Positions 6,321 through 38,188 of a DNA stretch of 64,000 nucleotides are shown here, piece after piece. Source of the DNA: Acidobacteriota bacterium (GTDB taxonomy: Bacteria; Acidobacteriota; Aminicenantia; UBA2199). Position 1 is the first letter of the stretch. The number at the start of each line of letters is the position of its first letter. The DNA is taken from NCBI GenBank assembly GCA_022711715.1, contig JAKLEC010000003.1, positions 1,256-65,255 on the forward strand. The letters run 5' to 3'. The notes under the pieces are model-generated. The model worked only from the letters and a program-made list of their open reading frames with translations, ran no database searches and was not told the DNA's origin. Both the position numbers and the translations under genes were made by a program.

Positions 6321-6420
6321 CGGACGCCTCCAGCGTAGGAAATCCATACGGAAATAGAACAAAAAAGTTCACCGGGGCTTGCAGGATGCCCCGATATTGG
6401 CGGAAAATTTCAGCGAATGC

Positions 6421-8053: not shown

Positions 8054-8295
8054 TCTTTTAATGTAATTATAGTATGAACCATTTCGTTAAAGCAAAAGCA
8101 ATGCATGTGCCAACCGGGTGGTGGATGGGATCGTCCAGCCAAGCCGGACAGAATTGGCCGTGTTTAGGCGGTTTATTTTTCCTAATTTTTATTCAAGGAT
8201 GGAATTTGAAAAATAAATTTGACAATTTTTTGTCGTTTCGAGTGTGTATTTTTTTTACTTTTATTACATCCAAGAAAAATTCTAGAAAAATTAAG

Positions 8296-17012: not shown

Positions 17013-19685
17013 ATGGAAAAAAACATTATCCTGAAGGGCGTCCGCACCCACAACCTGAAGGGCATCGACCTGGAGATCCCGCTGGGCAAGATCACCGCCC
17101 TGGTCGGCGTCAGCGGCGCCGGCAAGTCATCGCTGGCCTTCCACACGCTGTACGCCGAGGGCTACATCCGCTACATCGAGTCGATCTCGCCCTACATCCG
17201 CCAGTTCCTGGACCAGGTGGAAAAGCCCGACATCGACCGTGTCGAGAACCTGCCCCCGGCCATCGCCTTCCGCCAGAAGCGGCCCAACAAGAATCCCCGC
17301 TCCATCGTGGCCACCGCCGCCGACATCTTCGACTACCTGCGCATCCTCTACGCCAAGATCGCCGACTTTTGCTGCCCGGGCTGCGGCGCGCCGGTGCGCA
17401 AGTTCAGCATCGACGAGATCGTCGCGGACCTGCTGGCGCTGCCGCCCGCCTCGCTGCGCGTCTGCTTCGCCTACCAGGGCGACATCGCCTTCCTGGCCAA
17501 CCGCGGCTATCGTTTCCGGGTCAACGGCGGCGACAAGATCCTCATCGACGGCCGCAGCAAGGGCCGGCCCATCCAGGTGCTGGTCGACGAGATGGAGAAC
17601 TCGGCGGCGAACCGCGCCCGCCTCTTCGAGGCCGTCGACTCGGCCATCGGCCTGGGCCGCAGGACCGTCAGCGTCTTCGCCGCCGCCGGCGGCGCGAAAC
17701 GGTTCGCGGAACGGAGCTATCCCTTCTCGCTCTACTGCCCCCGCTGCGACAAGGAGTACGAGAGCCCCGACGAGAACCTGTTCTCCTTCAACAGCGCCCG
17801 CGGCGCCTGCCCGAGCTGCAACGGCTTCGGCGACGTGACGGCCATTGATCCCGCCCTGGTGTTCGCCGAGGAGCTTTCCCTGGAACAGGGGGCGGTGCGC
17901 CCGCTGAACACCCCGGCCAACCGCGACTTCCGCGACGATTTCCTGCTCCATGCCCGCAAGGCCGGGCTGGACACGCGCCGGCCCCTGCGCGAGCTCAGCG
18001 GAGCCCAGAGGGAATTCCTGCTGCGGGGGTCGGGGCGCTTCCCCGGCCTGGAGGGCCTGTTCGCCTACCTGCGCAGGAAATCCTACAAGGTCGAGGCGCG
18101 CGCCTTCCTGAGCCGCTATACCTCCTACCGCCCCTGCCCGGCCTGCGGCGGCAGCCGCTTCAACCCGCTGGTCCTCTCCTTCCGCGTCCAGGGCAGGACC
18201 ATCGCCGATTTCCTGGCCATGACCATCGGCGAGGCCGAGGCCTTCGTCCGCGGCCTCGACCCCAAGCGCCATGAACGGCGCATCTCGCCCGACGTGTCCC
18301 GCGAGATCTCGGCCAAGCTGCGCTTCCTGATCCAGAACCGCCTGCACTACATCCAGCTCGACCGCCCCACGTTCACCCTGTCGCGGGGCGAGCACCAGCG
18401 CATCAACCTGGCCTTCATCATGGGCTCCACCCTCTCCGACTCGCTGCTGATCATCGACCAGCCTTCGGCCGACCTGCACCCGGCCGACTACGGCAAGATG
18501 GACCTCTTCCTGCGCCGCCTGAAGGAGCACGGCAACACCGTCGTCATGGTCGAGCACAACCCGCTGCTGGTGCGCAGCTCCGACCACGTCGTCGAACTGG
18601 GACCCGGCGCCGGCAGCGCCGGCGGCCGCGTCGTTTTCCAGGGCGGCCGCGACGAATTCTTCGCCGGCGACGCCACCATTACCCAGAAGTATTTCCGCCG
18701 CCGCGCCCGGCCGGCGGCCGCGCCGGCCGGCGGCGCGGGGTACATGGAGTTCCGCAACGCCTGCGCCCACAACCTGAAGGGCTTCGACCTGCGGCTGCCG
18801 CTGCGGGCGCTGACCGTCATCGCCGGAGTCAGCGGCGCCGGCAAGAGCTCGCTGCTGTACGACGAGATGTACCTGAAGAACCCGCGCATCCCGGGCGTGC
18901 GCGAGAAGGTGCACATCGACCCCGGCATCCGTTCGCTGCGCAGCCACAGCAACATCGCCGGCTTCCTGGACGCCTCTTCCGCGGTGCGCGACGTCTTCGC
19001 CGCCCTGCCGCCCAGCCGCCAGTTGGGCTACCAGCCCGGCCATTTCTCCTTCCATTCCCCCCTCGGCCGCTGCCCGGAGTGCGGCGGCCGCGGCTTCAAG
19101 GAGATCGAGATGCAGTTCCTGCCCGCGGTCCGCGCCGGCTGCGGGCTGTGCCGCGGCAGCGGCTTCTCCCCCGAGGTGCTGAAGATCACCCTGCGCGGCC
19201 GCAGCATCGCCGACGTCCTGGCCATGACCGCCGACGCCTTCTGCGCCGAGTTCGCCGCCCGGATCCCGGCCGCCGCCGCGGCGCTGGCCCCGCTGCGCGA
19301 GAACGGCATGGGCACCCTGCGCCTGGGGGACAAGCTGGGCGCCCTGTCCAGCGGCGAGCTGCAGAAGCTCAAGCTGATCAAGCACTTGAACAACGGCGCC
19401 CCGGGCACGCTGTTCCTGATCGACGAGCCGTCGTTCGGGCTGCATCCCTTCGACGTCGAGGTGATCCGCGGGCTGATCGCCCGGCTGCTGGCGCGCGGCG
19501 ACACGGTGGTGGCCGTCGAGCACAACCTGGCCCTGATCGCCGGCGCCGATCATGTCGTCGAGCTGGGCCCCGAGGGCGGGGCCGGCGGCGGCCGGCTGCT
19601 CTTCAGCGGACCCCCGCGCGCGCTCGCGGGAAAGGCCTCGTCGGCCACCGGCCGCCATCTGAAAAAATATCTGCAAAAGGCTTGA
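17013..19685 (+). CDS. UvrA-like excinuclease ABC ATPase, divergent paralog
   Basis: 890 aa with two ABC modules (GVSGAGKSSL twice) and CxxC zinc modules. The first signature/Walker B is degenerate (LSRGE, IIDQPS); the second is canonical (LSSGE, LIDEPS). Confidence 0.85.
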   Translation: MEKNIILKGVRTHNLKGIDLEIPLGKITALVGVSGAGKSSLAFHTLYAEGYIRYIESISPYIRQFLDQVEKPDIDRVENLPPAIAFRQKRPNKNPRSIVATAADIFDYLRILYAKIADFCCPGCGAPVRKFSIDEIVADLLALPPASLRVCFAYQGDIAFLANRGYRFRVNGGDKILIDGRSKGRPIQVLVDEMENSAANRARLFEAVDSAIGLGRRTVSVFAAAGGAKRFAERSYPFSLYCPRCDKEYESPDENLFSFNSARGACPSCNGFGDVTAIDPALVFAEELSLEQGAVRPLNTPANRDFRDDFLLHARKAGLDTRRPLRELSGAQREFLLRGSGRFPGLEGLFAYLRRKSYKVEARAFLSRYTSYRPCPACGGSRFNPLVLSFRVQGRTIADFLAMTIGEAEAFVRGLDPKRHERRISPDVSREISAKLRFLIQNRLHYIQLDRPTFTLSRGEHQRINLAFIMGSTLSDSLLIIDQPSADLHPADYGKMDLFLRRLKEHGNTVVMVEHNPLLVRSSDHVVELGPGAGSAGGRVVFQGGRDEFFAGDATITQKYFRRRARPAAAPAGGAGYMEFRNACAHNLKGFDLRLPLRALTVIAGVSGAGKSSLLYDEMYLKNPRIPGVREKVHIDPGIRSLRSHSNIAGFLDASSAVRDVFAALPPSRQLGYQPGHFSFHSPLGRCPECGGRGFKEIEMQFLPAVRAGCGLCRGSGFSPEVLKITLRGRSIADVLAMTADAFCAEFAARIPAAAAALAPLRENGMGTLRLGDKLGALSSGELQKLKLIKHLNNGAPGTLFLIDEPSFGLHPFDVEVIRGLIARLLARGDTVVAVEHNLALIAGADHVVELGPEGGAGGGRLLFSGPPRALAGKASSATGRHLKKYLQKA

Positions 19686-24392: not shown

Positions 24393-24866
24393 TTATTGCT
24401 TGGTGTTCGGCAGGACGGTGAAGCGGCCGTCGCTGTAAATGATGTCCTGGTTGAAATCGGATAAAGAACGCAACGGATATTGGCCAACCGGCGTGTTATC
24501 GGTAACTTTGTTGCGGCCCCAGGACATAACCGAATAGGCGTCAAAAGCGCTTCCCCCGCCAGCATCGTATGCGAAGAGGGTATTCCAGCCATCTCGATCG
24601 GGCAGTATCTTGATGTAAAAAGGGCGGAACCAAGGTCGATCCAAACCGGTTATCAGGGTTTCACCCGGGGCAGGAGCGAAAGCCCAGTCGACGAGATACG
24701 ATTCGATGGCCGCTCCGATCGAGGTCATGTCCCCCATGGTCGCTTTCTGCCGGCCTTTATGCAGGGCCACCAGCAGGTTGGGGATGGCGATGGCGGCGAT
24801 GATGCCAATGATGGCCACGACGATAAGGAGCTCAATCAGCGTAAAGCCTCTTGTTCTCACTGGCAC
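24393..24866 (-). CDS. Type IV pilin-like / pseudopilin protein (paralog 1)
   Basis: MPVRTRG/FTLIELLIVVAIIGIIAAIAIPNLL prepilin motif. It is a paralog of the gene at 28167-28646. Confidence 0.85.
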   Translation of the reverse strand: MPVRTRGFTLIELLIVVAIIGIIAAIAIPNLLVALHKGRQKATMGDMTSIGAAIESYLVDWAFAPAPGETLITGLDRPWFRPFYIKILPDRDGWNTLFAYDAGGGSAFDAYSVMSWGRNKVTDNTPVGQYPLRSLSDFNQDIIYSDGRFTVLPNTKQ

Positions 24867-24891
24867 CTCCTCGTGATCCTATAATAAGAAA

Positions 24892-24906
24892 GCAATCTTG
24901 CTGCCA
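24892..24906 (-). promoter_or_regulatory. Sigma54 (-24/-12) promoter for pilin paralog 1
   Basis: The minus strand reads TGGCAGCAAGATTGC (consensus TGGCAC-N5-TTGC), 26 nt upstream of the ATG at 24866. Confidence 0.6.
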
Positions 24907-24929
24907 AATCGCTTTCATTCACGGCATTC

Positions 24930-26756
24930 TTATTTCCTAGAAGCCCGCTCAGGAAACTGGTGCAACTTGAAGACATAGGATCCGGGAGGGGCATGAAGGC
25001 GATCCGCCTGCTCGCGAATACGGGCGATCCGCTCCCGCAGCACGGGGTCATCGGCAGGAAGCCCCTCCAGCTCATGGAGGAACAGGATCGCCGCCACATA
25101 GGACGGCTCCAGGTCCAGGGCGGCCAGCGCCAGTTTTCGGGCTTCGGCCTTGCGGCCCGAATCCCGCAGGACCAGCGCCTGACGTAGCTTTAAAAACGGA
25201 TTGAACGGCTCAAGCGATTCGGCCCGGCGCAGCGGCCGCAGAATCTCATCGGCCAAATGGGGGTAAGCCAATTTACCAGCCTGGAATCCCCGGAACAGCT
25301 CCGACTCCAGGAACAGGGCCTCGCTGCCGTTGCGGTTCAAGCGCTGGGCCCGGCGCACGCGCTCCCAAGCATCGGTCCAGGCGTCCAGGTTGCCGGTTTC
25401 CGCGGCGATCATGCGCAAGTTTTCGCCCATAAAAAGCACAGGCCGCTCGTCCAGCGGGCTGAGAACCGCCGCCTGCCTGAGCAGGGAGAGCCGGCGCGAG
25501 AGATCTTTTTCGGCGGAGGCGGCAGCGAAACGCTGTTCCGCCATGTAGGGGAACAGGTAGAGCAGAACGACAATAAAAACAAGCAGTACAGACAAAAAGA
25601 GGCGCCCCGCGGGACGCAGCGAAACGAAACGGGGCCTTGAATACAGGAAATCCTGCAGGAGCAAGAAAAAGAGCATCAGGAAAAAAAAGTTGAAAAGGCA
25701 ATTGATCAAGAGGATCTGCGCCAGCAGGAAAGCCAGCAGCCATTTCGACAGATCGGACCATGGAGGGGAGAGCAACCGCCGAATGGCCGAAAACAGAGCC
25801 GCCAGCACGAATATCAGCCCCGGTGCCCCGTTTTCGACTATGATCTTCCAATAATCGCTGTGCGGGGATTCGGGAATCTTTCCGTAACGCGAAGGGCCCA
25901 TGTCTTGGGGAAAATTGAAGCGCGGCGCCGCCTCGGCAAACAGGTCGGGGCCGACCCCGGTCCAAAAATGGGCGCGAAACATGCGCGCCGACATGCTCCA
26001 GATGTCCAGGCGGTCGAAGACATAGGGATCGTGGCGCAGCGAATGGGCCAGCGAATGCCTGAAGGGATTGGGCAATACGACGAGGATGAGCAGCAGCAGG
26101 CCCAGGTAAACCATCCAGCGCCGGCGGCGAAGGAGGATCATGGCGGCCGAGAATAGGAACAGCCCCAGGAAGGCGGCCTTGGAGGCGCCGATGATCACGG
26201 CGGTCCCGTTCAGCACCAGAAGGGCGAGGCCGGCATGGGAATACCGGCGCAGAAGCAGGTGAAGGAAAACCAGGACCGCGAACGCCGAGGCGATACTCTG
26301 CAGGATGGGGTTCGCGAAGCAGGGAGTGGCGATCCCCCGCCCCCACTGCAGGGCAAACGCCGCCACCATCGCCAGCGATGAGATGGAGATCACTCCGGCC
26401 GCCAGGAACAGATACCGCTCCATGTCCCTTTTCTCCAGGAAAAAGAAAACGGCCCAGAACGAGACCAGGAAAACGTCGGCCACGAAAAGGAGCGACTTGT
26501 AGGGATGGGGGGAAAAGAAGGCGCTGAACATCAGAAACGAATTCAGGACCAGAAGAAAGGCCGAAAAACGGTGCAGGGCGATGTTTTTAAGAACTTGGAG
26601 CTTGGCCAGGGAGAAAACCGCCAGCAGGCAAACGAAACCGAGGTAATAGGCATAACCGATCTTGGCCGGAAACAGCAGCGCCCAGGCCAAAAGAAGGGAG
26701 AACTCAATTTCCTGGAAGTGCAGTCCGCTGGGCGATAGCCCCTTTAATGAAATCAT
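24930..26756 (-). CDS. O-antigen ligase (Wzy_C) family membrane protein with C-terminal TPR-like repeats
   Basis: Polytopic N-terminal part with ...FWTGVGPDLF...SPHSDYWKIIVENGAPGL. The C-terminal ~200 aa are helical-repeat/TPR-like. Confidence 0.8.
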   Translation of the reverse strand: MISLKGLSPSGLHFQEIEFSLLLAWALLFPAKIGYAYYLGFVCLLAVFSLAKLQVLKNIALHRFSAFLLVLNSFLMFSAFFSPHPYKSLLFVADVFLVSFWAVFFFLEKRDMERYLFLAAGVISISSLAMVAAFALQWGRGIATPCFANPILQSIASAFAVLVFLHLLLRRYSHAGLALLVLNGTAVIIGASKAAFLGLFLFSAAMILLRRRRWMVYLGLLLLILVVLPNPFRHSLAHSLRHDPYVFDRLDIWSMSARMFRAHFWTGVGPDLFAEAAPRFNFPQDMGPSRYGKIPESPHSDYWKIIVENGAPGLIFVLAALFSAIRRLLSPPWSDLSKWLLAFLLAQILLINCLFNFFFLMLFFLLLQDFLYSRPRFVSLRPAGRLFLSVLLVFIVVLLYLFPYMAEQRFAAASAEKDLSRRLSLLRQAAVLSPLDERPVLFMGENLRMIAAETGNLDAWTDAWERVRRAQRLNRNGSEALFLESELFRGFQAGKLAYPHLADEILRPLRRAESLEPFNPFLKLRQALVLRDSGRKAEARKLALAALDLEPSYVAAILFLHELEGLPADDPVLRERIARIREQADRLHAPPGSYVFKLHQFPERASRK

Positions 26757-28110
26757 GCCACCTCTGATATTCGTTGTTCTTCCTGTTCGCTTCCGCCGCC
26801 CGGCAGGCGTGGGCCAATGCCGTCAGATAGGCCCCGCGGCGCACGGCGATGTGCGAAACGAGATAATGGGCATACGCCTGCCCGGGAAAGGCGCCGAAGA
26901 CCCGGTCCAGGCATTTTTCCGCCGCCGGGCCATCTCCTCTTTCCCAGGCGATATGGGCCAGACCCAGCCAGGCACGGTAGGAAAACGGCTCGATCTTCAA
27001 GGCCGAGCGGTAGGAGCTCTCCGCACGCTGGGGCTTCCCGCGGCTTAGCCAAAGATCGCCCGCCTGCTGGCGGCTGGCGGCCGCGGCATGAACCAGAAGC
27101 ACGATCGCCGGCAGGAGAAGAGACGAGACATGCCGCGGCCGGACCGGTCCCGGCAAGCGGACAACTTGGGAGAGGACCAGGGAAAAGCTGATGCCAGCGG
27201 CAAAAAAGAAGTTGCCGATGTCGAACATATTGAAGCACAGGATCAGGACGCAGGCCGAGGCGAACAGGGCGTTTTCCCGGTCCGCGAAGCGGGGCAGATT
27301 CGATTTCAGCCAGTGCAGCGTCATGATGGCCAGCAGCAGGAACAAGGGCAGGCCGGCCTCGGCGGCAAACTGCAGGAAAAAATTATGGGCATAAATGGAG
27401 GTCGGCTCGTTCGCGCGAATGTGCGGGGAGACCGCCGACTCATAATTCCCCAGCCCCACGCCCAGGAGCGGGGCCTGGATGATGAGGCGGCCGGCCTGGG
27501 CCCAGTTGGCGAAGCGCAGCCTGGCCGGGGTCATTTCCCGGGCATCGGAAAACCGCAGGGCCGTGACCAGGAAAAACACCAGGGTCAGGACCATGAGCAG
27601 GGGCGCCAGGTGCCTGGCCCGGAACCTCCGTGAGGCAAAAAGATAAAACAAAATGCCGACCGTGAAGAAAAGGATGCCGCCGAAAGACTGGGTCAAGACC
27701 AGGTTGAAGGCGCCAAGGAGAAAAAGGCCGCCCCAAAAAAACTGCGCTCGGCCCCGCGAGCGGTACAGGTAGTGGACAACGAAGATCAGCAGCAGCCCGC
27801 AGACCATGGCGTACAGCGTGGGCAGGGGGAAAACGGCGAAGATCCGGCCAAAGGCAACGCGGGCGTGCAGGGCATGGGCGTAGAACGACGGTCCCGGCTC
27901 GAGCTGCCGGAGAATGGCGGGAAAAATAAGGTATTTCTGCAGGATTCCGTAAATGAAGAAGATCAGGGCGATCCCGCCGCTGATGGGGGCCAGGATTTTT
28001 TCAAGCCGGCAGCGCCGGCATAGGGAAAAAACACCCGACAGAAAAGCGAAATAGGCCAGGCGCAGCCAGAACAGCCCTTTCGCCTGGCTGGCGGAAAAAT
28101 TCAGCAGCAA
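26704..28110 (-). CDS. O-antigen ligase (Wzy_C) family membrane protein with C-terminal TPR repeats
   Basis: ...PLLGVGLGNYE...IYAHNFFLQFAAEAGLP... and a TPR tail. The TTG start at 28110 lies inside the terminator T-run, so the start is uncertain. Confidence 0.75.
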   Translation of the reverse strand: MLLNFSASQAKGLFWLRLAYFAFLSGVFSLCRRCRLEKILAPISGGIALIFFIYGILQKYLIFPAILRQLEPGPSFYAHALHARVAFGRIFAVFPLPTLYAMVCGLLLIFVVHYLYRSRGRAQFFWGGLFLLGAFNLVLTQSFGGILFFTVGILFYLFASRRFRARHLAPLLMVLTLVFFLVTALRFSDAREMTPARLRFANWAQAGRLIIQAPLLGVGLGNYESAVSPHIRANEPTSIYAHNFFLQFAAEAGLPLFLLLAIMTLHWLKSNLPRFADRENALFASACVLILCFNMFDIGNFFFAAGISFSLVLSQVVRLPGPVRPRHVSSLLLPAIVLLVHAAAASRQQAGDLWLSRGKPQRAESSYRSALKIEPFSYRAWLGLAHIAWERGDGPAAEKCLDRVFGAFPGQAYAHYLVSHIAVRRGAYLTALAHACRAAEANRKNNEYQRWHDFIKGAIAQRTALPGN

Positions 28111-28142
28111 AAAAAAAGCGGCTGGAAAATATTTCCAGCCGC
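28109..28142 (-). terminator. Rho-independent terminator/attenuator after pilin paralog 2
   Basis: The minus strand reads GCGGCTGGAAA-TAT-TTTCCAGCCGC, an 11-bp perfect stem, followed by T9. It sits between the pilin stop (28167) and the ligase ORF. Confidence 0.75.
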
Positions 28143-28166
28143 TTTCGAAGAACGAGTCGCGAACGA

Positions 28167-28646
28167 TTATCTCTTGACCTGGGGCCCGACCGTGTAGATG
28201 CCGTTGGAGAAGAAGATGTCGTTGTTGAAATCAGCCAGGCTGGTCACAGTATACAGATTGTTCGGGGGGGCGGGAATGGGGCCATTCAATTTATTGCGAC
28301 CCCAGGACTGGATCGTATACAAGTCACCGCCTGCAGCAATGGCGCTGTGATCATACCGGAAAATAGTGCCCCAGCCATCGGTTTGCGGGAGAATCTTGAT
28401 GTAGAAAGGCTGGAACCAGTTAACCGCCATGGTGTTGATTGGACCTGCCGCCACTTGCGGAGCAAACGACCAGTCAGTGATGTAGGACTCGATGGCCGAG
28501 CCGATCGACTTCATGTCGCCCATGGTCGCTTTCTGCTTGCCCTTCTGCAGGGCAACCAGCAGGTTGGGTATGGCGATGGCGGCAATGATACCGATAATGG
28601 CCACGACAATCAGCAATTCGATGAGCGTGAAACCTTTTTTATTCAT
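28167..28646 (-). CDS. Type IV pilin-like / pseudopilin protein (paralog 2)
   Basis: MNKKG/FTLIELLIVVAIIGIIAAIAIPNLL. RBS AAAGGAGG. Confidence 0.85.
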   Translation of the reverse strand: MNKKGFTLIELLIVVAIIGIIAAIAIPNLLVALQKGKQKATMGDMKSIGSAIESYITDWSFAPQVAAGPINTMAVNWFQPFYIKILPQTDGWGTIFRYDHSAIAAGGDLYTIQSWGRNKLNGPIPAPPNNLYTVTSLADFNNDIFFSNGIYTVGPQVKR

Positions 28647-28678
28647 TCGAACCTCCTTTAAGATTCACAATATATTAA

Positions 28679-28693
28679 GCAATTTCGCTGCCA
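28679..28693 (-). promoter_or_regulatory. Sigma54 (-24/-12) promoter for pilin paralog 2
   Basis: The minus strand reads TGGCAGCGAAATTGC, 33 nt upstream of the ATG at 28646. A palindrome TGACA-AATTC-TGTCA at 28766-28780 lies about 75-90 bp further upstream and is a candidate enhancer-binding-protein site. Confidence 0.6.
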
Positions 28694-28782
28694 AGCAAAA
28701 CTCTAGGTTTGAACAGGGCTTTTTGAAAATTTGTAGGGATTATTGCCAATTACCGTCAGCTGAAATGACAAATTCTGTCACA

Positions 28783-28826: not shown

Positions 28827-29834
28827 ATGACAAATGCTGGAAACATGTTCAACAATTGGATCAACATCCACGATCTAGAGCGGTTCTGGGAAAAGGCCGG
28901 CAGCGGCGGGTGGCGGCAGATTGTCAGGAGGGCATCGGCTGCCAAACAGGATCGAACCCGGTCAGCCTGGGAGCATACACAAAGCCCCCCCATTCATGCC
29001 TGGGAAATTCCGGAGCTGCGCCGGCGCTGGAATTTCATGGTATCCGGGAACGCCCAGATCGATCACGTCGCCCATGTCAAAAACAATTTCCTGGCGGGGA
29101 AAACGGGCCTTGCCGCCTTCTCGCCCGGCTGCGGCGGCGGCGGCAACGAGATGAGCTGGGCCCGGACCGGCCTCTTCCGGCGCATCGACGCCTGTGACCT
29201 TTCGCAGCCGCGCATCGCCGCCGCCCGACGGGCCGCCGAACAAGCGGGCCTGGACCGGATCCTGAACTTCCAGGTGGGCGACGTGGGCTCAATGGCCGGA
29301 GCCGGCCCCTACGACCTGGTGATCACCGAAGGCGCGCTCCATCATTTCTTCCCCATGCGCCGCGCGCTGGAAGAGATACGGGACATGCTCAGGCCCGGCG
29401 GCTTCCTGGTGATCAACGAATTCGTCGGCCCCTCCCGTTTCCAATGGACGGGGCGGCAGCTGCAGGCGGCCAATGAACTGCTGAACCAGATCCCGGAGGC
29501 ATACCGGCGGCGCTGGGAGAACGGCAGGGTCAAGAAAAGGATCGACGCGCCGGGGCGCCTGCGCATGATGCTGGCGGACCCCTCCGAGGCGGCCGAGTCT
29601 TCGGCGATCCTGCCTTTGCTCAATGAAATGTTCCTGCCGCTGGAGGTCAAGGAGAAGGGCGGCACCCTCGCCTGCCTGGTATTCCACGGCATCGCCCACC
29701 ACTTCCTGGAACCCGAAGCAGAAGCCGAAGCAGTCCTGCGCCGTTGCTTCGCAGTTGAGGACAGCCTCATGAAAAGCGGCGAGATCACCAGCGATTATGT
29801 CTTCGGGGTATTTGGCAACCGGGCAGGCGGATAG
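28827..29834 (+). CDS. Class I SAM-dependent methyltransferase
   Basis: ...YDLVITEGALHHFFPMRRALEEIRDMLRPGGFLVINEF... (motifs II/III). Start uncertain. Confidence 0.7.
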   Translation: MTNAGNMFNNWINIHDLERFWEKAGSGGWRQIVRRASAAKQDRTRSAWEHTQSPPIHAWEIPELRRRWNFMVSGNAQIDHVAHVKNNFLAGKTGLAAFSPGCGGGGNEMSWARTGLFRRIDACDLSQPRIAAARRAAEQAGLDRILNFQVGDVGSMAGAGPYDLVITEGALHHFFPMRRALEEIRDMLRPGGFLVINEFVGPSRFQWTGRQLQAANELLNQIPEAYRRRWENGRVKKRIDAPGRLRMMLADPSEAAESSAILPLLNEMFLPLEVKEKGGTLACLVFHGIAHHFLEPEAEAEAVLRRCFAVEDSLMKSGEITSDYVFGVFGNRAGG

Positions 29835-29871
29835 CCGGCGATTATTGCCGGCGGTCTGCGCGGCCAGCCGG

Positions 29872-29901
29872 TTGTCAATCAAGCCTGAAATCATGTATGA
29901 T
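29872..29901 (+). promoter_or_regulatory. Sigma70-like promoter candidate (TTGTCA-18-TATGAT)
   Basis: TTGTCA at 29872-29877 and TATGAT at 29896-29901, upstream of the aminotransferase gene. Confidence 0.3.
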
Positions 29902-30027
29902 GAACATGAGATGGCCTGAGCCCATGCTTGCGCCAACAAATCCGCCAGCCCGGCCGCATGCAGCGGCGGCAGCTTAGGAAAAAGGACGGAATTCCTTCTC
30001 GGCAGACAGCCCCCAAGGAGACACAGC

Positions 30028-31140
30028 ATGCAGTTCATCGACTTACCGGCCCAGCAAAAAAGGATCCGCGAGCGGATCGAAGCCGGAATGAAACGAATAC
30101 TGGACCACGGCCAGTACATCATGGGCCCGGAAATCCGCGAGCTTGAGGCAAAGCTGGCCGCCTTCACCGGCTCGCGTTACGCCGTGGCCGTGGCCAGCGG
30201 CACCGACGCCCTGCTCATGCCGCTGCTGGCCGAAAACGTCGGGCGGGGCGACGCCGTTTTCGTCCCCACGTTCACGTTCATCGCCACCGCCGGCGCCGTC
30301 GCCCTCACCGGGGCGACGCCGGTCTTCGTTGACATCGACCCGGAAACGTTCAATATCGACCCGGCAAGCCTCGAGGGGGCGATAGAAAAAATCATTGCCG
30401 AGAAAAAACTCACGCCCAGGGGAATCATGCCGGTCGACCTGTTCGGCCAGCCCGCCGATTACGACGCCATCCAGGCCATCGCCGACAAGCACCGGATGTT
30501 CGTCCTGGAGGACGCGGCCCAGAGTTTCGGCGCCGGCCAAAAGGGGAGGAAGGCCGGCGCGCTGGCCCGGGTGGCGGGGACGAGCTTCTTCCCGGCCAAG
30601 CCGCTGGGCTGTTATGGCGATGGCGGCATGGTCTTCACCGATGACACGGCCGTTCATGAGCAGCTGCTGTCCATCCGCGTGCACGGCCAGGGGGCCGACA
30701 AGTACACCAACGTGCGGGTGGGCATCAACGGCCGCATGGACTCCCTGCAGGCGTCCGTGCTGCTGGCCAAAATGGATATCTTTCCCGAGGAGATCGAACT
30801 GCGCCAGCAGGTCGCCGGCCGTTACGACCGGCTGCTGGCCGGAGCCGTGAAAACGCCCAGGATCCTGCCCGGGAATGTCTCCGCCTGGGCACAGTACTCG
30901 GTTCTCCATCCGCACCGCGACAAGGTCATCGCCAAGCTGCGCGAGGAAGGCATCCCGACCGCCGTTTATTACCCGATCCCCCTGCACATGCAGCAGGCCT
31001 TCGCTGGCCTGGGATACCGCCAGGGAGACTTCCCGGTCGCCGAAAAGACCGCCAACGAGATATTCAGCCTGCCCATGCACCCCTATCTGCAGCCAGCGGA
31101 CCAGGAGCGGATCGCCGAGGTCATCACTCGGTTTTCATGA
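30028..31140 (+). CDS. DegT/DnrJ/EryC1/StrS-family sugar aminotransferase
   Basis: MQFIDLPAQQKRI...GQYIMGPEIRELE...ASGTDALLM... and full-length family similarity. Confidence 0.9.
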   Translation: MQFIDLPAQQKRIRERIEAGMKRILDHGQYIMGPEIRELEAKLAAFTGSRYAVAVASGTDALLMPLLAENVGRGDAVFVPTFTFIATAGAVALTGATPVFVDIDPETFNIDPASLEGAIEKIIAEKKLTPRGIMPVDLFGQPADYDAIQAIADKHRMFVLEDAAQSFGAGQKGRKAGALARVAGTSFFPAKPLGCYGDGGMVFTDDTAVHEQLLSIRVHGQGADKYTNVRVGINGRMDSLQASVLLAKMDIFPEEIELRQQVAGRYDRLLAGAVKTPRILPGNVSAWAQYSVLHPHRDKVIAKLREEGIPTAVYYPIPLHMQQAFAGLGYRQGDFPVAEKTANEIFSLPMHPYLQPADQERIAEVITRFS

Positions 31141-32003
31141 AGAGATTCGTGCGCAAGCACTTCCCGGTCGGGGTGCAATCCTGGCTGCGAAGGGCATATT
31201 ACCGATATCCCCTCCTGCGTCGCCTGTATTATCTCCCCCAGGACGCGGCGCAGCGATTGCGGAGAAGGGGTGGTTCCATAACGCCGCCCCGATCGCTGAT
31301 CTCGGTCGGCGACGGGGATTTCGCCGCCATCGGCGGCGAATTTCTTGGATATTTCAAGGATCTGGCCGGGCTGCAGCCGGATGAAAAGGTACTTGAGATC
31401 GGCTGCGGAGTCGGCCGCATGGCCATCCCCCTGACGACGTATCTCAGCGACCAGGGAGAGTATGTTGGGTTTGATATTGTCCGGCCCGAGATCCGCTGGT
31501 GCCAGAAGCGCATCACCCCGCGCTTCCCCAACTTCCATTTCCACTATATTGACATCCACAACGAACAGACGAACCGGCGGGGCCGGCAGCAAGCCGGTTC
31601 CTGCCGTTTCCCCTTCACAGACGGTCGCTTCGACTTCGTCTTCCTGACATCCGTCTTCACCCATATGCTCCTGGAGGACATCGGGAACTACCTGCTCGAA
31701 ATCTCGCGGGTCCTGAAGCCCAACGGCCGGATGCTGGCCACCTGCTTCCTGCTGGACCCGCCAGCCCGCGAGCGGTTAAAGAAAATGAACAGCCGTTTCC
31801 GCCATGTTCATGGCGACAGCTTGGCCATCGATCCCAGGCTGCCGGAGGCCAGCATCGCCCACGAGGAAGCCGCAATCCGAAACCTGTTCAAAAAAAGCGG
31901 CCTGGCCATTCAAGATCCGGTCCGCTACGGCAATTGGAACGGACGGGAAAATTTTTTATCTTCCCAGGATATCATCGTTGCCCGAAAAAATGAATCGGAA
32001 TAA
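31137..32003 (+). CDS. Class I SAM-dependent methyltransferase
   Basis: Motif I VLEIGCGVGR and post-I/II motifs (FDFVFLTSVFTHM, LKPNGRM). Confidence 0.75.
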   Translation: MKRFVRKHFPVGVQSWLRRAYYRYPLLRRLYYLPQDAAQRLRRRGGSITPPRSLISVGDGDFAAIGGEFLGYFKDLAGLQPDEKVLEIGCGVGRMAIPLTTYLSDQGEYVGFDIVRPEIRWCQKRITPRFPNFHFHYIDIHNEQTNRRGRQQAGSCRFPFTDGRFDFVFLTSVFTHMLLEDIGNYLLEISRVLKPNGRMLATCFLLDPPARERLKKMNSRFRHVHGDSLAIDPRLPEASIAHEEAAIRNLFKKSGLAIQDPVRYGNWNGRENFLSSQDIIVARKNESE

Positions 32004-32832
32004 GGATAAGCTCCCAGTCCTACTGATCATCGAGGCCGGAAAAGGCCGCCGGCAGTTCTTCCGCGATCTGTGGAACTACCGCGAACTCTTCCTGTTCCTC
32101 TCCTGGCGCGATATCCTGGTCCGCTACAAGCAGGCGGTCCTGGGCATACTGTGGAGCGTTCTGCGCCCGCTTCTGACCATCGCCGTCTTCTCGCTGGTAT
32201 TCGGGCGGCTGGCCAAATTGCCCGCCCAGGGTGTCCCCTACCCGGTCCTGGTGTTCGCGGCCATGCTCCCCTGGCAGTTCTTTGCCGGCGCCCTACAAGA
32301 GAGCAGCAACAGCCTGCTGGGGAACACCAACCTGATCTCCAAGATCTACTTCCCGCGCCTGATCATTCCCGCCTCATCGGTCATGGTCCACCTTCTGGAC
32401 TTCCTCATTTCACTGGCGCTCCTGTTGAGCATGATGGCCTGGACCCGCTGCCTGCCCGACGCCCGCGTCCTCTTCCTGCCGCTCTTCCTGCTCCTAGCCC
32501 TGCTGCTGGCGCTGGGATGCGGTTTCTGGTTCTCGGCGCTAAACGTCAAGTACCGCGACTTCCGCTACGTCGTCCCATTCATCGTCCAGTTCGGCCTGTA
32601 CATCTCCCCGGTCGGGTTCAGCAGCACCGTCATCCCCGAACGCTGGCGGCTGCTCTATGCGCTGAACCCGTTGGTGGGCATCATCGACGGTTTCCGCTGG
32701 TCGCTGCTACGGGGCCGGGCGGAGCTCAACATGCAAGGTTTCTGGCTGTCACTCCTGCTGGTGCTGCTGGTGTTTCTTTCCGGCCTCACTTATTTCCGCC
32801 GCACCGAGCGCCTTTTCGCCGATGTTATCTGA
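31990..32832 (+). CDS. wzm: ABC-2 type polysaccharide export permease (Wzm/TagG-like)
   Basis: ...FRDLWNYRELFLFLSWRDILVRYKQAVLGILWSVLRPLL... with 6 TM. Start at the ATG at 31990. Confidence 0.85.
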   Translation: MNRNKDKLPVLLIIEAGKGRRQFFRDLWNYRELFLFLSWRDILVRYKQAVLGILWSVLRPLLTIAVFSLVFGRLAKLPAQGVPYPVLVFAAMLPWQFFAGALQESSNSLLGNTNLISKIYFPRLIIPASSVMVHLLDFLISLALLLSMMAWTRCLPDARVLFLPLFLLLALLLALGCGFWFSALNVKYRDFRYVVPFIVQFGLYISPVGFSSTVIPERWRLLYALNPLVGIIDGFRWSLLRGRAELNMQGFWLSLLLVLLVFLSGLTYFRRTERLFADVI

Positions 32833-34105
32833 AATGAAATTTGTGATTCGCGTCGCCGGCCTGGGCAAGAAATACCTCATCCGCCACCAGTCGCGGCCGC
32901 GCTACGAAACGCTGCGCGACACGCTGGCCCACGGTGCCCGGCGGCTGCTGCGAAAAAACGCCGCACCCTGCAGGGAGGACTTCTGGGCCCTGCGCGATGT
33001 TACTATTGAGGTGAAGCCAGGCGACAAGCTCGGCATCATCGGCCGCAACGGCGCCGGCAAGACCACGCTGCTAAAGATCCTCAGCCGCATCACCGAGCCC
33101 AGCGCCGGCCGGGCAGAGATCCGCGGCCGCGTGGCCAGCCTGCTTGAGGTGGGCACCGGCTTCCACCCTGAGTTGACCGGCCGGGAGAACATCTTTCTCA
33201 ACGGGGCGATCCTGGGCATGCGCCGCCACGAGATCGCGCGCAAGTTCGACGAGATCGTGACCTTCGCCGAAGTGGAAAAATTCCTCGACACGCCGGTCAA
33301 GCGCTATTCCTCGGGTATGTACGTGCGCCTGGCCTTCGCCGTAGCGGCCCACCTGGAACCGGAAATATTGATCATCGACGAGGTTCTGGCTGTGGGCGAC
33401 GCCCAGTTCCAGAAAAAGTGCCTGGGAAAGATGGGTGACGTGACGAAAGAAGGCCGGACAGTGCTGTTCGTCAGTCATAATTTGGGGGCCATCGAAACAC
33501 TTTGCGATGCGGCCATCCTTCTCGATCGTGGAAGACTGCAACAGGTCGGCGAGACGCATCAAGTGATCGCCGCCTATCTATCGACATTCGACGACGGGAC
33601 AATCGGCGATCTGCGTACGCGAACGGACCGCAGCGGTTCTGGAAAAGCGAGAATCACGGCCATCGGCATGAAGGGAGAGGGTGGGGAAGCGCTGCAACAA
33701 GTATTGTCCGGACAAGATTGCACAGTTACGATCGACTTCCACTCGTCGATTGAACTCGTCAGGCCAACGTTCAGGTTTACAATCTACAACAGCATGGGAC
33801 AGCCGCTCCTTCATTTCAACAGCTCACTCGGCGAAAAGCCCTTGACCGGCCTTTCGCGCAGCGGGTGCGCTGGCTGCCGTATCAACAAGCTCCCGCTGGC
33901 GAAAGGCAACTATCGTCTGAATGCGTCACTGGAGGACAGCGGGCTACTGCTGGACCATGTGAACGGAGCGTATTCTTTCGCAGTTGATGAAGGAAACTTC
34001 TATGGCGCCGGTCGCAATGTCATCGACTTAAAGGAGATCTGCTTGGCCGAGCAGGAATGGCTGCCTGTCGAGCCCAGACAACCCGCGGTGAAAAGTGAAA
34101 ACTAA
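32822..34105 (+). CDS. wzt: Polysaccharide export ABC ATPase (Wzt/TagH-like) with an extra C-terminal domain
   Basis: GRNGAGKTTLLK, YSSGMYVRLAFA and ILIIDEVLAVGD motifs. The ~170-aa C-terminal extension is like a Wzt carbohydrate-binding domain. Confidence 0.9.
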   Translation: MLSEMKFVIRVAGLGKKYLIRHQSRPRYETLRDTLAHGARRLLRKNAAPCREDFWALRDVTIEVKPGDKLGIIGRNGAGKTTLLKILSRITEPSAGRAEIRGRVASLLEVGTGFHPELTGRENIFLNGAILGMRRHEIARKFDEIVTFAEVEKFLDTPVKRYSSGMYVRLAFAVAAHLEPEILIIDEVLAVGDAQFQKKCLGKMGDVTKEGRTVLFVSHNLGAIETLCDAAILLDRGRLQQVGETHQVIAAYLSTFDDGTIGDLRTRTDRSGSGKARITAIGMKGEGGEALQQVLSGQDCTVTIDFHSSIELVRPTFRFTIYNSMGQPLLHFNSSLGEKPLTGLSRSGCAGCRINKLPLAKGNYRLNASLEDSGLLLDHVNGAYSFAVDEGNFYGAGRNVIDLKEICLAEQEWLPVEPRQPAVKSEN

Positions 34106-34940
34106 ATCGCATCCCATACTCCACGCCGCGGCCAACAGTCTCGCCAAGAGGTATTTTTACAAATTCCTGCGCACGTTCCTCATTCCGATCGATTATACGA
34201 GGACCAAGGAAATTCCGGCCATGCTGGACTTGAGCGGTTTGCTGGAATGTCAGGAGCGGAAGCTGAAAATCCTGGATATCGGCTCGCCTCAGATATTATC
34301 TCTTTCATTGGGAAAGTACTCTGCTGCGTGGGAAATCACCTATGTAAATTCCTGGGAGCCAGAGCTGGAAGACATGCGGCAAAAAGCCTCGGCCCTTGGG
34401 CTTAGCCAGATGCAGATCATCCATGCCGATATAACCCGTTTTGACACCGTCTCCGGGTTGGGAACGTTCGACTTTATTTTTTCCTGCTCGGTATTCGAAC
34501 ATATTCACCCTGAGGATGGAGGCGATTCGCTGGCAGCAAAGATCGTCCCGCGCTTGCTGAATCCCTCTGGCGTTTTTACTTTTTCTGTCCCTTTTTATAC
34601 AGAAAAATTCAATGAATACATGCCCGGGGACGTATATGGCATGAAGGGCACACTTCTGAACAAAACGTTCTTTCAGCGCTTCTATGATGAAAAATCCCTG
34701 AAGGATCAGATCATAACGCCAACCGGTCTGCGCGTCAGCGGGAAAACGTATGTCGGTGAAAGATACTATGCGGTAAATAATATAAAAAAGAGGATGTCGC
34801 TTCTCGTTGGTCTCGGGAAACGCGCATTCATCATGGGGAGATCATTCAATGCGCTATCCACTGTGTTCATGGAAGAATCGCGCGATTACAAAAAATTGAA
34901 GAAGCCATATCTAGCCATCATTGCCATGATAAAGGATTAA
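34095..34940 (+). CDS. Class I SAM-dependent methyltransferase-like protein
   Basis: KILDIGSP...FDFIFSCSVFEHI...LNPSGVF. The gene is visibly AT-richer than its neighbours. Confidence 0.6.
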   Translation: MKTKSHPILHAAANSLAKRYFYKFLRTFLIPIDYTRTKEIPAMLDLSGLLECQERKLKILDIGSPQILSLSLGKYSAAWEITYVNSWEPELEDMRQKASALGLSQMQIIHADITRFDTVSGLGTFDFIFSCSVFEHIHPEDGGDSLAAKIVPRLLNPSGVFTFSVPFYTEKFNEYMPGDVYGMKGTLLNKTFFQRFYDEKSLKDQIITPTGLRVSGKTYVGERYYAVNNIKKRMSLLVGLGKRAFIMGRSFNALSTVFMEESRDYKKLKKPYLAIIAMIKD

Positions 34941-34952
34941 TTCTCTGACTAT

Positions 34953-36086
34953 GTGACTATGAAAAGAATAGGATTGATCACAACCTTGAACACCAATATC
35001 GGCGATGACTTCATCCGCGAAGGCATCTGTCTGTTGCTGCGAGAACAATTCAGGGGAGAAGAAATCGAGTTCATTCCGGTCAACAAACATAGACCTCTCT
35101 CGGCCTACCCGAAATGGCATCCCATTCAGCTCAGCAAAGCAGCTCACATTTTACCAAGAGGTAGAAAACGCTTAAGTCGTTTTCTAGAAACCTTCGCAGC
35201 AAAGCTAAAATCAAGCCGTTTCGATAATTGTGACCTGATCGTTCAATGTGGGACCCCTGTTTTTTCGCCTAGCTGCAGTCATACCGAGTGGGTGAAGCCC
35301 ATTTGGGAGGGAATCATCGGCCGACTCCACGAGCAGATCCCGGTTTTTAACCTGGCGGCAGGTTCATGCTATCCTTGGGAGAGACAACCCGTAAAAATTG
35401 ACTCTCCTGAAGACGAAAAGTATTTAAGGGCGATACTCAGCTATTGCCGGCTGACCACTGTCCGCGACCGACTTTCACAAAAACTGTGCAAAACGCTTGG
35501 CGCCGATTTGCCATTGATCCCCTGCAGCGCACTCTTGGTGGGCAAGGGAAGAAAAGTGCAGGGCTCTCCCTCTAGCTATATTTTATTCAACTACATGAGG
35601 GGCGGTGGACATTACACATGGGAGCAGGGAATCGATGAACAAAAATGGGAAAACTCAGTGAAAACGCTCATTGCCCGACTTTCTAAAAGACACAAGGTGG
35701 CTTTCCTGTGCCATGACGAAAAAGAGTATTCTCTGGCCAAAAGACTTGATCCCAGGCTGCCCGCCTTTTTCCCGAAGTCGCCCCGAGATTATCTTGAATG
35801 CGCTTCTGAAGCCAAGTTTGCCGTTTGCAATCGGATGCATGCATCAATCGCCATGGCTGGAATAGGCATACCTTCAATAGCTGTATGTACCGATACACGG
35901 ATGTTAATGGTGTCACAGATAGGACTTGCTACTCACTATGTCAAGGATGTGAATGCAGATGACTTGGAAGATGAGACCGAAAATGGCATCCAATCAGTCC
36001 GATCCGAGCAGGATAGGCTTCTTGTCATCCAATCAGAAACATGGGCAAGCTACACTTCAATTATCAAAGAAACACTTCATCCCTGA
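34953..36086 (+). CDS. Polysaccharide pyruvyl transferase family protein
   Basis: N-terminal IGLITTLNTNIGDDFIREG resembles the PS_pyruv_trans signature. AT-richer gene. Confidence 0.6.
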   Translation: MTMKRIGLITTLNTNIGDDFIREGICLLLREQFRGEEIEFIPVNKHRPLSAYPKWHPIQLSKAAHILPRGRKRLSRFLETFAAKLKSSRFDNCDLIVQCGTPVFSPSCSHTEWVKPIWEGIIGRLHEQIPVFNLAAGSCYPWERQPVKIDSPEDEKYLRAILSYCRLTTVRDRLSQKLCKTLGADLPLIPCSALLVGKGRKVQGSPSSYILFNYMRGGGHYTWEQGIDEQKWENSVKTLIARLSKRHKVAFLCHDEKEYSLAKRLDPRLPAFFPKSPRDYLECASEAKFAVCNRMHASIAMAGIGIPSIAVCTDTRMLMVSQIGLATHYVKDVNADDLEDETENGIQSVRSEQDRLLVIQSETWASYTSIIKETLHP

Positions 36087-37141
36087 TGAATTGCATTTCG
36101 ATTTGGCAAAGAGCAAAGAAATATTGGAACCGCTTCAGGCATCGCCTGATTCTCAAGTTGTCGTTTCGGATCAACGGCGCCTTACTTTGCCGACACCTGA
36201 AGCGGGCAGGCGTCCGCACTGATCATCGGCGAGTGATCGTCATCAGTCAGGTTGAGCATCTGGGTGATATCGTGGCCTGCGAACCGGTAGTGCGCGAGAT
36301 GCGCCGGCAATGGCCAGGAGCATTCATCGTATTTGCCCTCCGCCCTGAATACAGAGAACTGATGGATGTGCATCCAGATGTTGACTATGTATTGCCAGTA
36401 ACCTGCGTCTCAGAATGGGCCCGCTATACTGTTTCTGATATTTTCAACCAAGTCATTGACTTGAATATCGAGGATCGCAAGTGTAGGATCTGTTGCGAAT
36501 CTTGGTATAAGCGGATTGGTAACCACGGCGTCACCTTTAGTAATTATTTAAATCTGGGCAGCCTGATGGAGAGTTTCTGCCGGTCAGCCGGAATAACCCC
36601 ACCAAACGGGGGGCCGAAAATTTATCAGGATAAAAACAATGTGACGATTATCAACAATTTTCGGCTTCCCAATTCGTTCGTCGTTATCCATACTAATAGC
36701 AATATGCCCAACAAATCTCTTCCATCGAATATGTGGCAACAGATATTCTCCTACATCACCAGGCGTTGGGACTTGCCAATCGTCGAAATTGGACTCGAGA
36801 CAGGAATACTCATGTCAAATGAAACGAGAAACCGCTGTCTGTGTGGACAGTTATCAATATTACAATCTGCAGAAGTAATCCGCCGAAGTGTTCTTTTTTT
36901 AGGTGTAGACAGCGGACCTGCGCATCTGGCTAACGCGGTTGGAGCATATGGGATAATTATTCTGGGGCATTATCAACATTTTCGGCGATATATACCTTAT
37001 TCCGGAGACTACGCCCATGGGATCCGCAGCGAGCTTCTCCATCACGATGGTCCAATAGCCGAAATTCCCATCACACGAATCTTTGAGGCCATTGACCGCC
37101 GCCTGTCCGCAGTAATGATTCCCGGCTTGAAGTTATCGTGA
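36086..37141 (+). CDS. Glycosyltransferase family 9 (heptosyltransferase-like)
   Basis: ...HLGDIVACEPVVREM... and ...GVDSGPAHLANAVGAYGIIILG. ATGA overlap with the upstream gene. AT-richer gene. Confidence 0.7.
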   Translation: MNCISIWQRAKKYWNRFRHRLILKLSFRINGALLCRHLKRAGVRTDHRRVIVISQVEHLGDIVACEPVVREMRRQWPGAFIVFALRPEYRELMDVHPDVDYVLPVTCVSEWARYTVSDIFNQVIDLNIEDRKCRICCESWYKRIGNHGVTFSNYLNLGSLMESFCRSAGITPPNGGPKIYQDKNNVTIINNFRLPNSFVVIHTNSNMPNKSLPSNMWQQIFSYITRRWDLPIVEIGLETGILMSNETRNRCLCGQLSILQSAEVIRRSVLFLGVDSGPAHLANAVGAYGIIILGHYQHFRRYIPYSGDYAHGIRSELLHHDGPIAEIPITRIFEAIDRRLSAVMIPGLKLS

Positions 37142-37156
37142 CCGTTGGGAGTTCAC

Positions 37157-38146: not shown

Positions 38147-38188
38147 TGCCCGCCTTCCCGAGGCCGCGAGCGGCCCGCGCCGCCTCCC

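Follow-up and report, generated by a model that had tools for sequence, protein, structure and literature searches.

A conserved pilin-Wzy_C-TPR cassette in Acidobacteriota, a candidate two-part pilin O-oligosaccharyltransferase system

INTRODUCTION

TfpO, PglL, PglS, and TfpM are working tools of bacterial O-glycoengineering, and to our knowledge all characterized pilin-adjacent Wzy_C enzymes, namely these four, come from Proteobacteria. Harding et al. are said to have reported in 2015 that two Wzy_C oligosaccharyltransferase genes follow pilA in Acinetobacter, in the order pilA-tfpO-pglL. Here, we describe a locus from an uncultured Aminicenantes bacterium (Acidobacteriota), on the minus strand at positions 24393 to 28780 of a 64,000-nucleotide stretch (the window; contig JAKLEC010000003.1 of assembly GCA_022711715.1), in which a type IV prepilin gene, pilin2, is followed by two genes for Wzy_C proteins with C-terminal tetratricopeptide repeat (TPR) domains, lig2 and lig1, and by a second prepilin gene, pilin1. 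As judged from its sequence, the locus is probably a pilin operon controlled by PilR and sigma54, in which weak read-through yields a two-part pilin O-oligosaccharyltransferase of the TfpO/PglL/PglS/TfpM kind.

As here, the genes for TfpM (Moraxellaceae) and TfpO (PilO; Pseudomonas aeruginosa group I and Acinetobacter) come immediately after the major pilin gene and share its orientation. Both enzymes likewise contain Wzy_C, with a conserved catalytic His that appears to have a counterpart here, and borrow their glycan from a surface-polysaccharide pathway (PMC9829042), as is predicted for this locus. They differ in being 420 to 470 amino acids (aa) long and in having no C-terminal domain (PMC9829042, Table 2), and their acceptor is a Ser or Thr at the pilin C terminus. 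Here, there are two enzymes, each predicted to carry a periplasmic TPR domain after an extra transmembrane (TM) helix, and VKR and TKQ are the last residues of the pilins. Two larger enzymes (520 to 620 aa), PglS of Acinetobacter baylyi and PglL of Neisseria and others, resemble the present ones in having large C-terminal periplasmic domains (PMC9829042); they use internal acceptor sites, as would be expected here. pglL homologs adjoin pilin genes in 21 of 31 cases, and pilA-adjacent Wzy_C O-oligosaccharyltransferases are known (PMC3643930). Unlike PglL and PglS, the proteins encoded here lack PglL_A and Wzy_C_2, end in a canonical TPR domain, and form a coupled or fused pair, which is unreported for tfpO and pglL.

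A second point of comparison is TfpW (P. aeruginosa group IV), which is encoded 3′ of pilA, has a periplasmic TPR domain whose best match is the OGT TPR, and modifies pilin (bioRxiv 10.1101/2020.04.19.049825). It resembles the enzymes described here in being a polytopic membrane protein with a large periplasmic C-terminal TPR domain and a pilA-adjacent gene, but its core is of the GT-C/ArnT-like type with a DDX motif and its sugar is D-arabinofuranose, whereas the core here is Wzy_C and WaaL-like. A preliminary description of the locus had held that fusion to a C-terminal TPR domain is not a feature of the TfpO/PilO, Acinetobacter, and PglL systems; such a periplasmic domain nevertheless has a precedent in a pilin-modifying enzyme encoded beside pilA, namely TfpW, and PglL and PglS also carry large C-terminal domains. 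The O-antigen ligase WaaL (Cupriavidus metallidurans, PDB 7TPG) shares with lig1 and lig2 the Pfam family and appears to share catalytic-type residues and, as predicted here, a lipid-linked donor; it differs in having ~400 aa and no TPR, in its location in a lipopolysaccharide (LPS) core cluster, and in its acceptor, lipid A-core. By analogy, the present arrangement would act like pilA-tfpO, pilA-tfpM, comP-pglS, and pilA-tfpW, but it departs from TfpO and TfpM in enzyme size and in the lack of a C-terminal acceptor and from PglL in the lack of PglL_A. Literature searches turned up no account of such a cassette, whether from Acidobacteria or adjoining pilR.

RESULTS

The pilin-ligase cassette is conserved across Acidobacteriota

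The window belongs to a 2.09-Mb, high-GC metagenome-assembled genome (MAG) that is 82% complete, and gene calls were taken from identical public contigs; the nearest homologs are labeled Candidatus Aminicenantes or Acidobacteria bacterium. Using the open reading frame (ORF) list and the sequence, the minus-strand order across 24393 to 28780 was found to be pilin2, lig2 (paralog A), lig1 (paralog B), and pilin1. The features named in the preliminary description (the pilins, the Wzy_C-TPR proteins, the promoter boxes, a palindrome, a hairpin with a T9 run, and the Wzm/Wzt genes) were all present where it had placed them.

A sample of 301 Acidobacteriota genomes was surveyed, with lig2-like genes identified in 101 and lig1-like genes in 78. 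The order pilin, lig2-like, lig1-like on the same strand was found in at least 45 genomes from ~26 families, which bears out a co-occurrence with pilins in related genomes that the preliminary description had set as a check. A prepilin gene of the same family lies within ~1 kb upstream in 23 of the 30 best lig2-like loci, and every one of the 38 Aminicenantes species loci with enough flanking sequence has a pilin upstream. As judged from gene order, the conserved unit is one or more pilins followed by Wzy_C-TPR proteins A and B. The trailing pilin1 is present after lig1 in only ~13 of these 38 loci, and six have two pilins in front, indicating that pilin1 is a variable extra copy. One family (f42) has two pilins and then a lig1-like gene alone. 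At the thresholds applied, families f29, f31, f13, and f41 showed several copies of the pilin family but neither a lig1-like nor a lig2-like gene. A search with the lig2 alignment returned the Aminicenantes loci and unrelated generic Wzy_C fragments in Chloroflexota and was uninformative on other phyla.

The lig2 and lig1 reading frames overlap by 53 nucleotides (nt), an overlap shared by relatives, which suggests translational coupling; in one distant relative, the overlap is 4 nt. In one locus (L106; GCA_003695625.1), a single 1,240-aa protein contains two Wzy_C stretches, the lig2-like one before the lig1-like one, and uninterrupted frames of 1,045 to 1,374 aa occupy the same position in ~7 families. 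As fusion is a classic sign of joint function, lig2 and lig1 would be expected to act jointly.

The preliminary description had viewed the locus as two tandem modules, that is, a duplication of the whole pilin-ligase pair. This was ruled out, as only the pilins are alike (59% identity), lig1 and lig2 share no significant BLASTP similarity (E = 0.41), and the order is pilin, ligase A, ligase B, pilin. On the evidence of their sequences, lig1 and lig2 are two old, distinct paralogs.

Two Wzy_C proteins with TPR domains

The products of lig2 (26704 to 28110, minus strand; 468 aa) and lig1 (24930 to 26756, minus strand; 608 aa) match Wzy_C (PF04932) with scores of 60.2 and 60.1 bits, respectively, against a gathering cutoff of 31.7. 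lig2 also matches Pfam TPR_19/TPR_16, the TPR domain of lig1 is overlooked by Pfam, and NCBIfam has no named family for either protein. A sequence search of solved structures returned TPR proteins and a weak match of lig1 to WaaL 7TPG (E = 0.012).

AlphaFold2 models were examined for both proteins. The lig2 model (mean predicted local distance difference test [pLDDT] score, 83.7) ends in three TPR repeats with template-modeling scores of 0.84 to 0.88 to the peptide-binding TPRs of CTPR3, CHIP, and SGT and to Hsp90-peptide TPRs, while the lig1 model (pLDDT, 94.6; predicted template-modeling score, 0.92) ends in ~5 repeats like those of MamA and OGT, scoring 0.7 to 0.79 to MamA and CTPR4. Each protein is thus modeled as Wzy_C, a further TM helix, and a TPR domain, and because four TM helices separate the catalytic loop from the TPR domain in both models, the loop and the TPR domain would both be periplasmic.

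Residues R199, N202, W203, H242, N243, E251, and G253 are invariant across 46 lig2 homologs, and R249, W253, H299, E308, and G310 are nearly invariant across 50 lig1 homologs (at least 90% for R249, W253, and H299). Arg and His residues are essential for activity in Escherichia coli WaaL (R215, R288, and H338) and in PglL (R224, R298, and H349) (PMC3643930), and such residues are also essential in TfpM (PMC9829042). The Arg and His of lig1 and lig2 appear to correspond to these residues, as judged from where the motifs lie rather than from an alignment with WaaL, PglL, or TfpM. In lig2, a conserved equivalent of the second Arg was not found.

The TPR domain of lig2 also weakly matches the PilW model, and TPR proteins of the PilW/PilF type serve pilus biogenesis, so that lig1 and lig2 might be considered noncatalytic membrane proteins acting as pilin chaperones or pilus assembly scaffolds. 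This is highly improbable, given that the catalytic-type Arg and His are invariant or nearly so, that glycan genes accompany the cassette, and that the pilin also occurs in many relatives that lack lig1 and lig2.

The pilins and their link to PilSR

pilin2 (28167 to 28646, minus strand; 159 aa) and pilin1 (24393 to 24860, minus strand; 155 aa) both match Pfam N_methyl (37.1 and 33.8 bits, respectively) and T2SSG, so that the profile searches suggested in the preliminary description recovered the expected families in all four proteins, with TPR reported by Pfam for lig2. Both pilins have a class III signal, MNKKG/FTLIELL in pilin2 and MRTRG/FTLIELL in pilin1, with a short basic leader, Gly at −1, Phe at +1, Glu at +5, and a hydrophobic helix, as in type IVa pilins; the best NCBIfam model is GspG, with a score under its cutoff. 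The start of pilin1 is most likely the GTG at 24860 rather than the GTG at 24866, because it has the better ribosome-binding-site spacing (AGGAGG 5 nt upstream) and agrees with public gene calls. The pilins end in GPQVKR (pilin2) and PNTKQ (pilin1), so the earlier remark that neither has a C-terminal Ser holds, and those of relatives terminate in K, R, or Q. The variable pilin loops are rich in Ser, Thr, Ala, and Pro, for example PIPAPPNNLYTVTS in pilin2, which may hint at an acceptor region, although no particular residue was assignable as the glycosylation site. An exact-sequence lookup of one distant pilin gave no match.

In the L106 locus, the gene order is pilC, pilS, pilR, pilin, pilin, the fused ligase, a family 2 glycosyltransferase (GT2), and a WecA-family glycosyltransferase, followed by other genes. 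Three other loci also have pilR, encoding a sigma54 activator, immediately before the pilin gene, and one of them comes from the class of the window genome. In the window genome itself, pilB-pilT-pilC-pilS-pilR occupy a different contig, and pilR is not followed by a pilin gene. Because its orthologs follow pilC-pilS-pilR and the genome's own pilSR has no pilA, pilin2 is likely the major pilin PilA under PilSR/sigma54 control; the metatranscriptome depth reported below agrees with the high expression expected of PilA.

Control of pilA by PilS/PilR and sigma54 is known in Pseudomonas, Myxococcus, and Geobacter. As in those systems, a −24/−12 promoter with an upstream enhancer site is found here, and relatives have pilB-T-C-S-R beside the pilin; unlike in those systems, the cassette with the pilin no longer adjoins pilSR in this genus, and TGACA-N5-TGTCA is a putative PilR site. 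The genome check for PilR/PilS and pilus machinery called for in the preliminary description thus located pilB-T-C-S-R on another contig, as well as rpoN and two secretins in the genome. No match to a prepilin peptidase (Peptidase_A24) was found in the 82%-complete MAG despite pilB/T/C/S/R, the two secretins, and five prepilin-like genes, probably reflecting a gap in the MAG.

Two further prepilin-like genes, at 1804 to 2352 (minus strand) of the window and at ~24524 to 24913 of contig C48, are different, more GspG-like, and typical of pseudopilins, one of them immediately downstream of pnp. Both may serve a separate cluster resembling a type II secretion system on contig C84, which encodes an 880-aa ATPase and an 853-aa secretin.

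Sigma54 promoters and an upstream activator site

The near-consensus −24/−12 boxes that the preliminary description had placed before both pilins were confirmed. That of pilin2 is TGGCAGCGAAATTGC (TGGCAG-N5-TTGC; 28679 to 28693, minus strand), and that of pilin1 is TGGCAGCAAGATTGC (24892 to 24906, minus strand). The pattern TGGCA-N6-TTGC has three matches in 64 kb, against 0.75 expected, and two of the three precede the pilins. Across the phylum, a matching box, with slight degeneracy allowed, lies 52 to 116 nt before the Gly-1 codon in 36 of 61 distinct pilin genes (background, 0.055 per 230 nt). It normally precedes the first pilin of a cluster, and the pilin1 box is kept before the trailing pilin of genus relatives (L083, L085, L086, and L020). 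Within the locus, sigma54 boxes are found 5′ of the pilins only; lig2 and lig1 lie behind a terminator and have no recognizable promoter of their own.

A tandem upstream activator site (UAS) at 28744 to 28780 (minus strand) consists of the perfect palindrome TGACAGAATTTGTCA (TGACA-N5-TGTCA; 28766 to 28780) and an imperfect site, TGACGGTAATTGGCA (28744 to 28758). The UAS lies ~85 nt upstream of the pilin2 −24 box; the palindrome, at enhancer distance as had been noted in the preliminary description, is the sole match both in the window (0.02 expected) and in the whole 2.09-Mb assembly. Of 11 loci from this taxonomic family, 10 have an exact copy of the palindrome equally far from the pilin. The second, weaker site is 22 bp downstream, center to center, and is partly conserved. 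Activators of the NtrC type, PilR among them, would be expected to act from such a layout, and we designate it a putative PilR-type site, to which we infer binding. A correctly spaced GG/GC pair at −24/−12, conserved at orthologous positions and accompanied by a UAS, by rpoN, and by an encoded enhancer-binding protein (PilR), agrees with a sigma54-dependent promoter with an enhancer.

A UAS palindrome was also looked for upstream of pilin1, and none was found. The pilin1 box lies within an inverted repeat at 24888 to 24916 (GAAAGCGATT...GATTGCTTTC) that was also flagged by the terminator scan; this repeat could be a weak terminator for lig1 or could act by promoter occlusion. The third match to the sigma54 pattern, TGGCACATGCATTGC at 8098 to 8112 (minus strand), is ~50 nt 5′ of an ORF beginning MKTRKRKEPR, upstream of a TolC-like gene (4791 to 6362).

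A conserved terminator separates pilin2 from the ligase genes

An intrinsic terminator or attenuator at 28105 to 28146 (minus strand) consists of a GC-rich stem of 15 bp, capped by a 3-nt loop and followed by nine T residues (T9). The strong hairpin and T9 attenuator reported earlier was confirmed at 28114 to 28146, with a free energy of −25 kcal/mol and a z-score of −3.9; none of 200 shuffled sequences folds as well. Of 37 Aminicenantes loci, 36 keep the terminator together with its stem sequence, GCGGCTGG. Across the species of loci L109 to L150, whose ligases are only 40 to 60% identical, the stem keeps its nucleotide sequence (AAGCGGCTGGAA...TTCCAGCCGCTT followed by T9), and this conservation exceeds the need of a mere hairpin. 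The TTG start codon of lig2 makes up the final three bases of the T-run region and has no Shine-Dalgarno sequence; because the lig2 N terminus is conserved as protein from residue 4 onward, this start is taken as real.

Expression was assessed from 100%-identical contigs in three metatranscriptomes of activated sludge and biofilm. Contigs extending from 28147/28156 to 28625/28644, that is, over pilin2, had a depth of 14 to 114 and the ligases a depth of 0 to 2, contig depth being a rough and poor measure of expression. pilin2 is the only strongly covered segment, pilin1 gives little or no signal, and the RNA contigs reach no farther than 28147 to 28156, which is the 5′ edge of the hairpin. The pilin2 mRNA is therefore abundant in situ, and the ligases would be expressed only through read-through or an unrecognized promoter.

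Glycan genes change around the cassette

A divergently transcribed glycan-assembly cluster, covered here from 28827 to 38646 (plus strand) through Pfam labels of gene calls on identical public contigs, encodes methyltransferases, a DegT aminotransferase, Wzm, Wzt with Wzt_C, a pyruvyl transferase, GT9, an epimerase, and GT2. The statement in the preliminary description that the block abuts a Wzm/Wzt glycan cluster is correct, and the lipid-linked glycan probably comes from this cluster. The flanks of the cassette differ by family: lpxD and Wzm/Wzt in the window; YfhO-like, DegT, formyltransferase, Wzx, and GT4 genes in L103; PQQ-propeller genes and GT2 in L105; and pilSR and a WecA-type glycosyltransferase in L106. 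Glycan genes usually lie close by, their pathway type varying, and the pilin-ligase order stays constant; this would be expected of a transferase that accepts the lipid-linked glycan of its cell, of whatever kind. A gene of the YfhO-like (GT-C) family just upstream of the cassette in L103 (1 to 2431) and L105 (5637 to 6080) is a possible extra glycosylation component.

It was considered whether lig1 and lig2 are instead WaaL-like ligases for the LPS or exopolysaccharide of the adjacent O-antigen cluster, with the pilins as mere neighbors. Public annotation as "O-antigen ligase family protein," the flanking lpxD and Wzm/Wzt genes, and the weak match of lig1 to 7TPG would all agree with this, but the pilin-ligase order persists in ~26 families despite wholly changed flanks, the L106 cassette sits inside a pilus locus right after pilSR-pilA, and read-through of the pilin transcript leads into the ligase genes, for which no promoter was found. 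Moreover, the genome holds at least two further Wzy_C genes. The best scoring of these encodes 401 aa and lies between genes for a GT9 heptosyltransferase and a PfkB/RfaE-like kinase. Heptosyltransferase and kinase genes of this type are the usual setting of waaL, and this separate gene in a heptose/core-type cluster is the better WaaL candidate. lig1 and lig2, in contrast, follow a pilin gene and carry TPR domains. We therefore regard a WaaL role as distinctly unlikely. A fourth Wzy_C-containing open frame, of 927 aa and matched by Pfam in two parts, was also observed on contig C56 (~18231 to 19574; genome G000).

Alternatively, the two paralogs could divide the labor, one being a Wzy-type polymerase or chain modifier and the other transferring to pilin or to another acceptor. 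Pfam Wzy_C includes both polymerases and ligases, the paralogs are very unlike yet always paired or fused, and L103 has a Wzx flippase with no other recognizable polymerase in the 15 kb covered for that locus. The lineage of the window, however, relies on Wzm/Wzt, a pathway in which a Wzy is not needed, and even so retains both genes with conserved catalytic residues. Both paralogs also have a periplasmic TPR domain, and Wzy polymerases are not known to carry one. A split into a polymerase and a transferase would fit poorly with the Wzm/Wzt pathway here, and we consider this division of labor unlikely.

DISCUSSION

From the combined data we infer PilR binding, read-through, glycan transfer, a pilin acceptor site, and cooperation of the two enzymes, which together give the following model. 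PilS and PilR, encoded on another contig, would activate sigma54 from the tandem upstream site, leading to very strong transcription of pilin2, and most transcripts would end at the hairpin-T9 terminator. Rare read-through transcripts would give the translationally coupled, nonidentical lig2 and lig1 proteins, each with an Arg...His catalytic loop and a TPR domain on the periplasmic side. The two, fused in several lineages, would cooperate in moving the glycan, a product of the neighboring cluster, from its undecaprenyl-pyrophosphate carrier to a Ser or Thr of the membrane-anchored pilin before assembly, with the TPR domains holding the pilin. pilin1 would be an alternative, weakly expressed variant with its own sigma54 promoter. 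The proposal of pilin O-glycosylation in the preliminary description is supported in part, by linkage across the phylum, a PilSR/sigma54 pilin, changing glycan genes, and a better WaaL candidate elsewhere, and it loses its duplicated module.

Several points weigh against this model. Glycosylation of these pilins, most likely as it seems, is a prediction from sequence, and the model gives no reason for two different enzymes. Neither pilin ends in Ser or Thr, and a Pfam scan of the ligases at E = 10 gave no match to PglL_A (PF15864) or Wzy_C_2. Foldseek searches of both models against the PDB were dominated by TPR matches, with no listed match for the membrane core, which is set beside WaaL by sequence only, through the 7TPG match. 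The cassette is flanked by lpxD and an O-antigen-type Wzm/Wzt ABC-transporter cluster, which would also suit an LPS role, and glycans of ABC-transporter pathways are normally passed to WaaL. To these may be added the missing prepilin peptidase and the roughness of contig depth as a measure of expression. Finally, the pilin family is found without either ligase in many Acidobacteriota families, and thus the ligases are not required for pilus formation. The cassette, on its distribution among these genomes, appears accessory and patchy, and pilins without ligases in many families fit an optional modification.

More tentatively, the two Wzy_C-TPR proteins may constitute one obligate, two-site periplasmic machine dedicated to pilin, a heterodimer here and fused elsewhere in Acidobacteriota, although we hold this specific form to be doubtful. 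If true, it would represent a further, as yet undescribed class of bacterial O-oligosaccharyltransferase, with a WaaL-like core, a 13th helix, and an outward TPR acceptor arm, and may load long, ABC-transporter-made polysaccharide chains onto the pilus.

If lig2 and lig1 do act on pilins, such paired or fused TPR-bearing enzymes throughout the phylum Acidobacteriota would broaden what is known of protein O-glycosylation and would suggest that acceptor proteins are recognized by a TPR arm, in the manner of OGT and TfpW. The UAS, the sigma54 box, and the terminator, all of them conserved, offer a testable model for how an abundant structural protein and scarce modifying enzymes can be produced from one transcription unit. 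Glycosylated pili would then be a common surface trait of abundant, rarely cultured soil and sludge bacteria.

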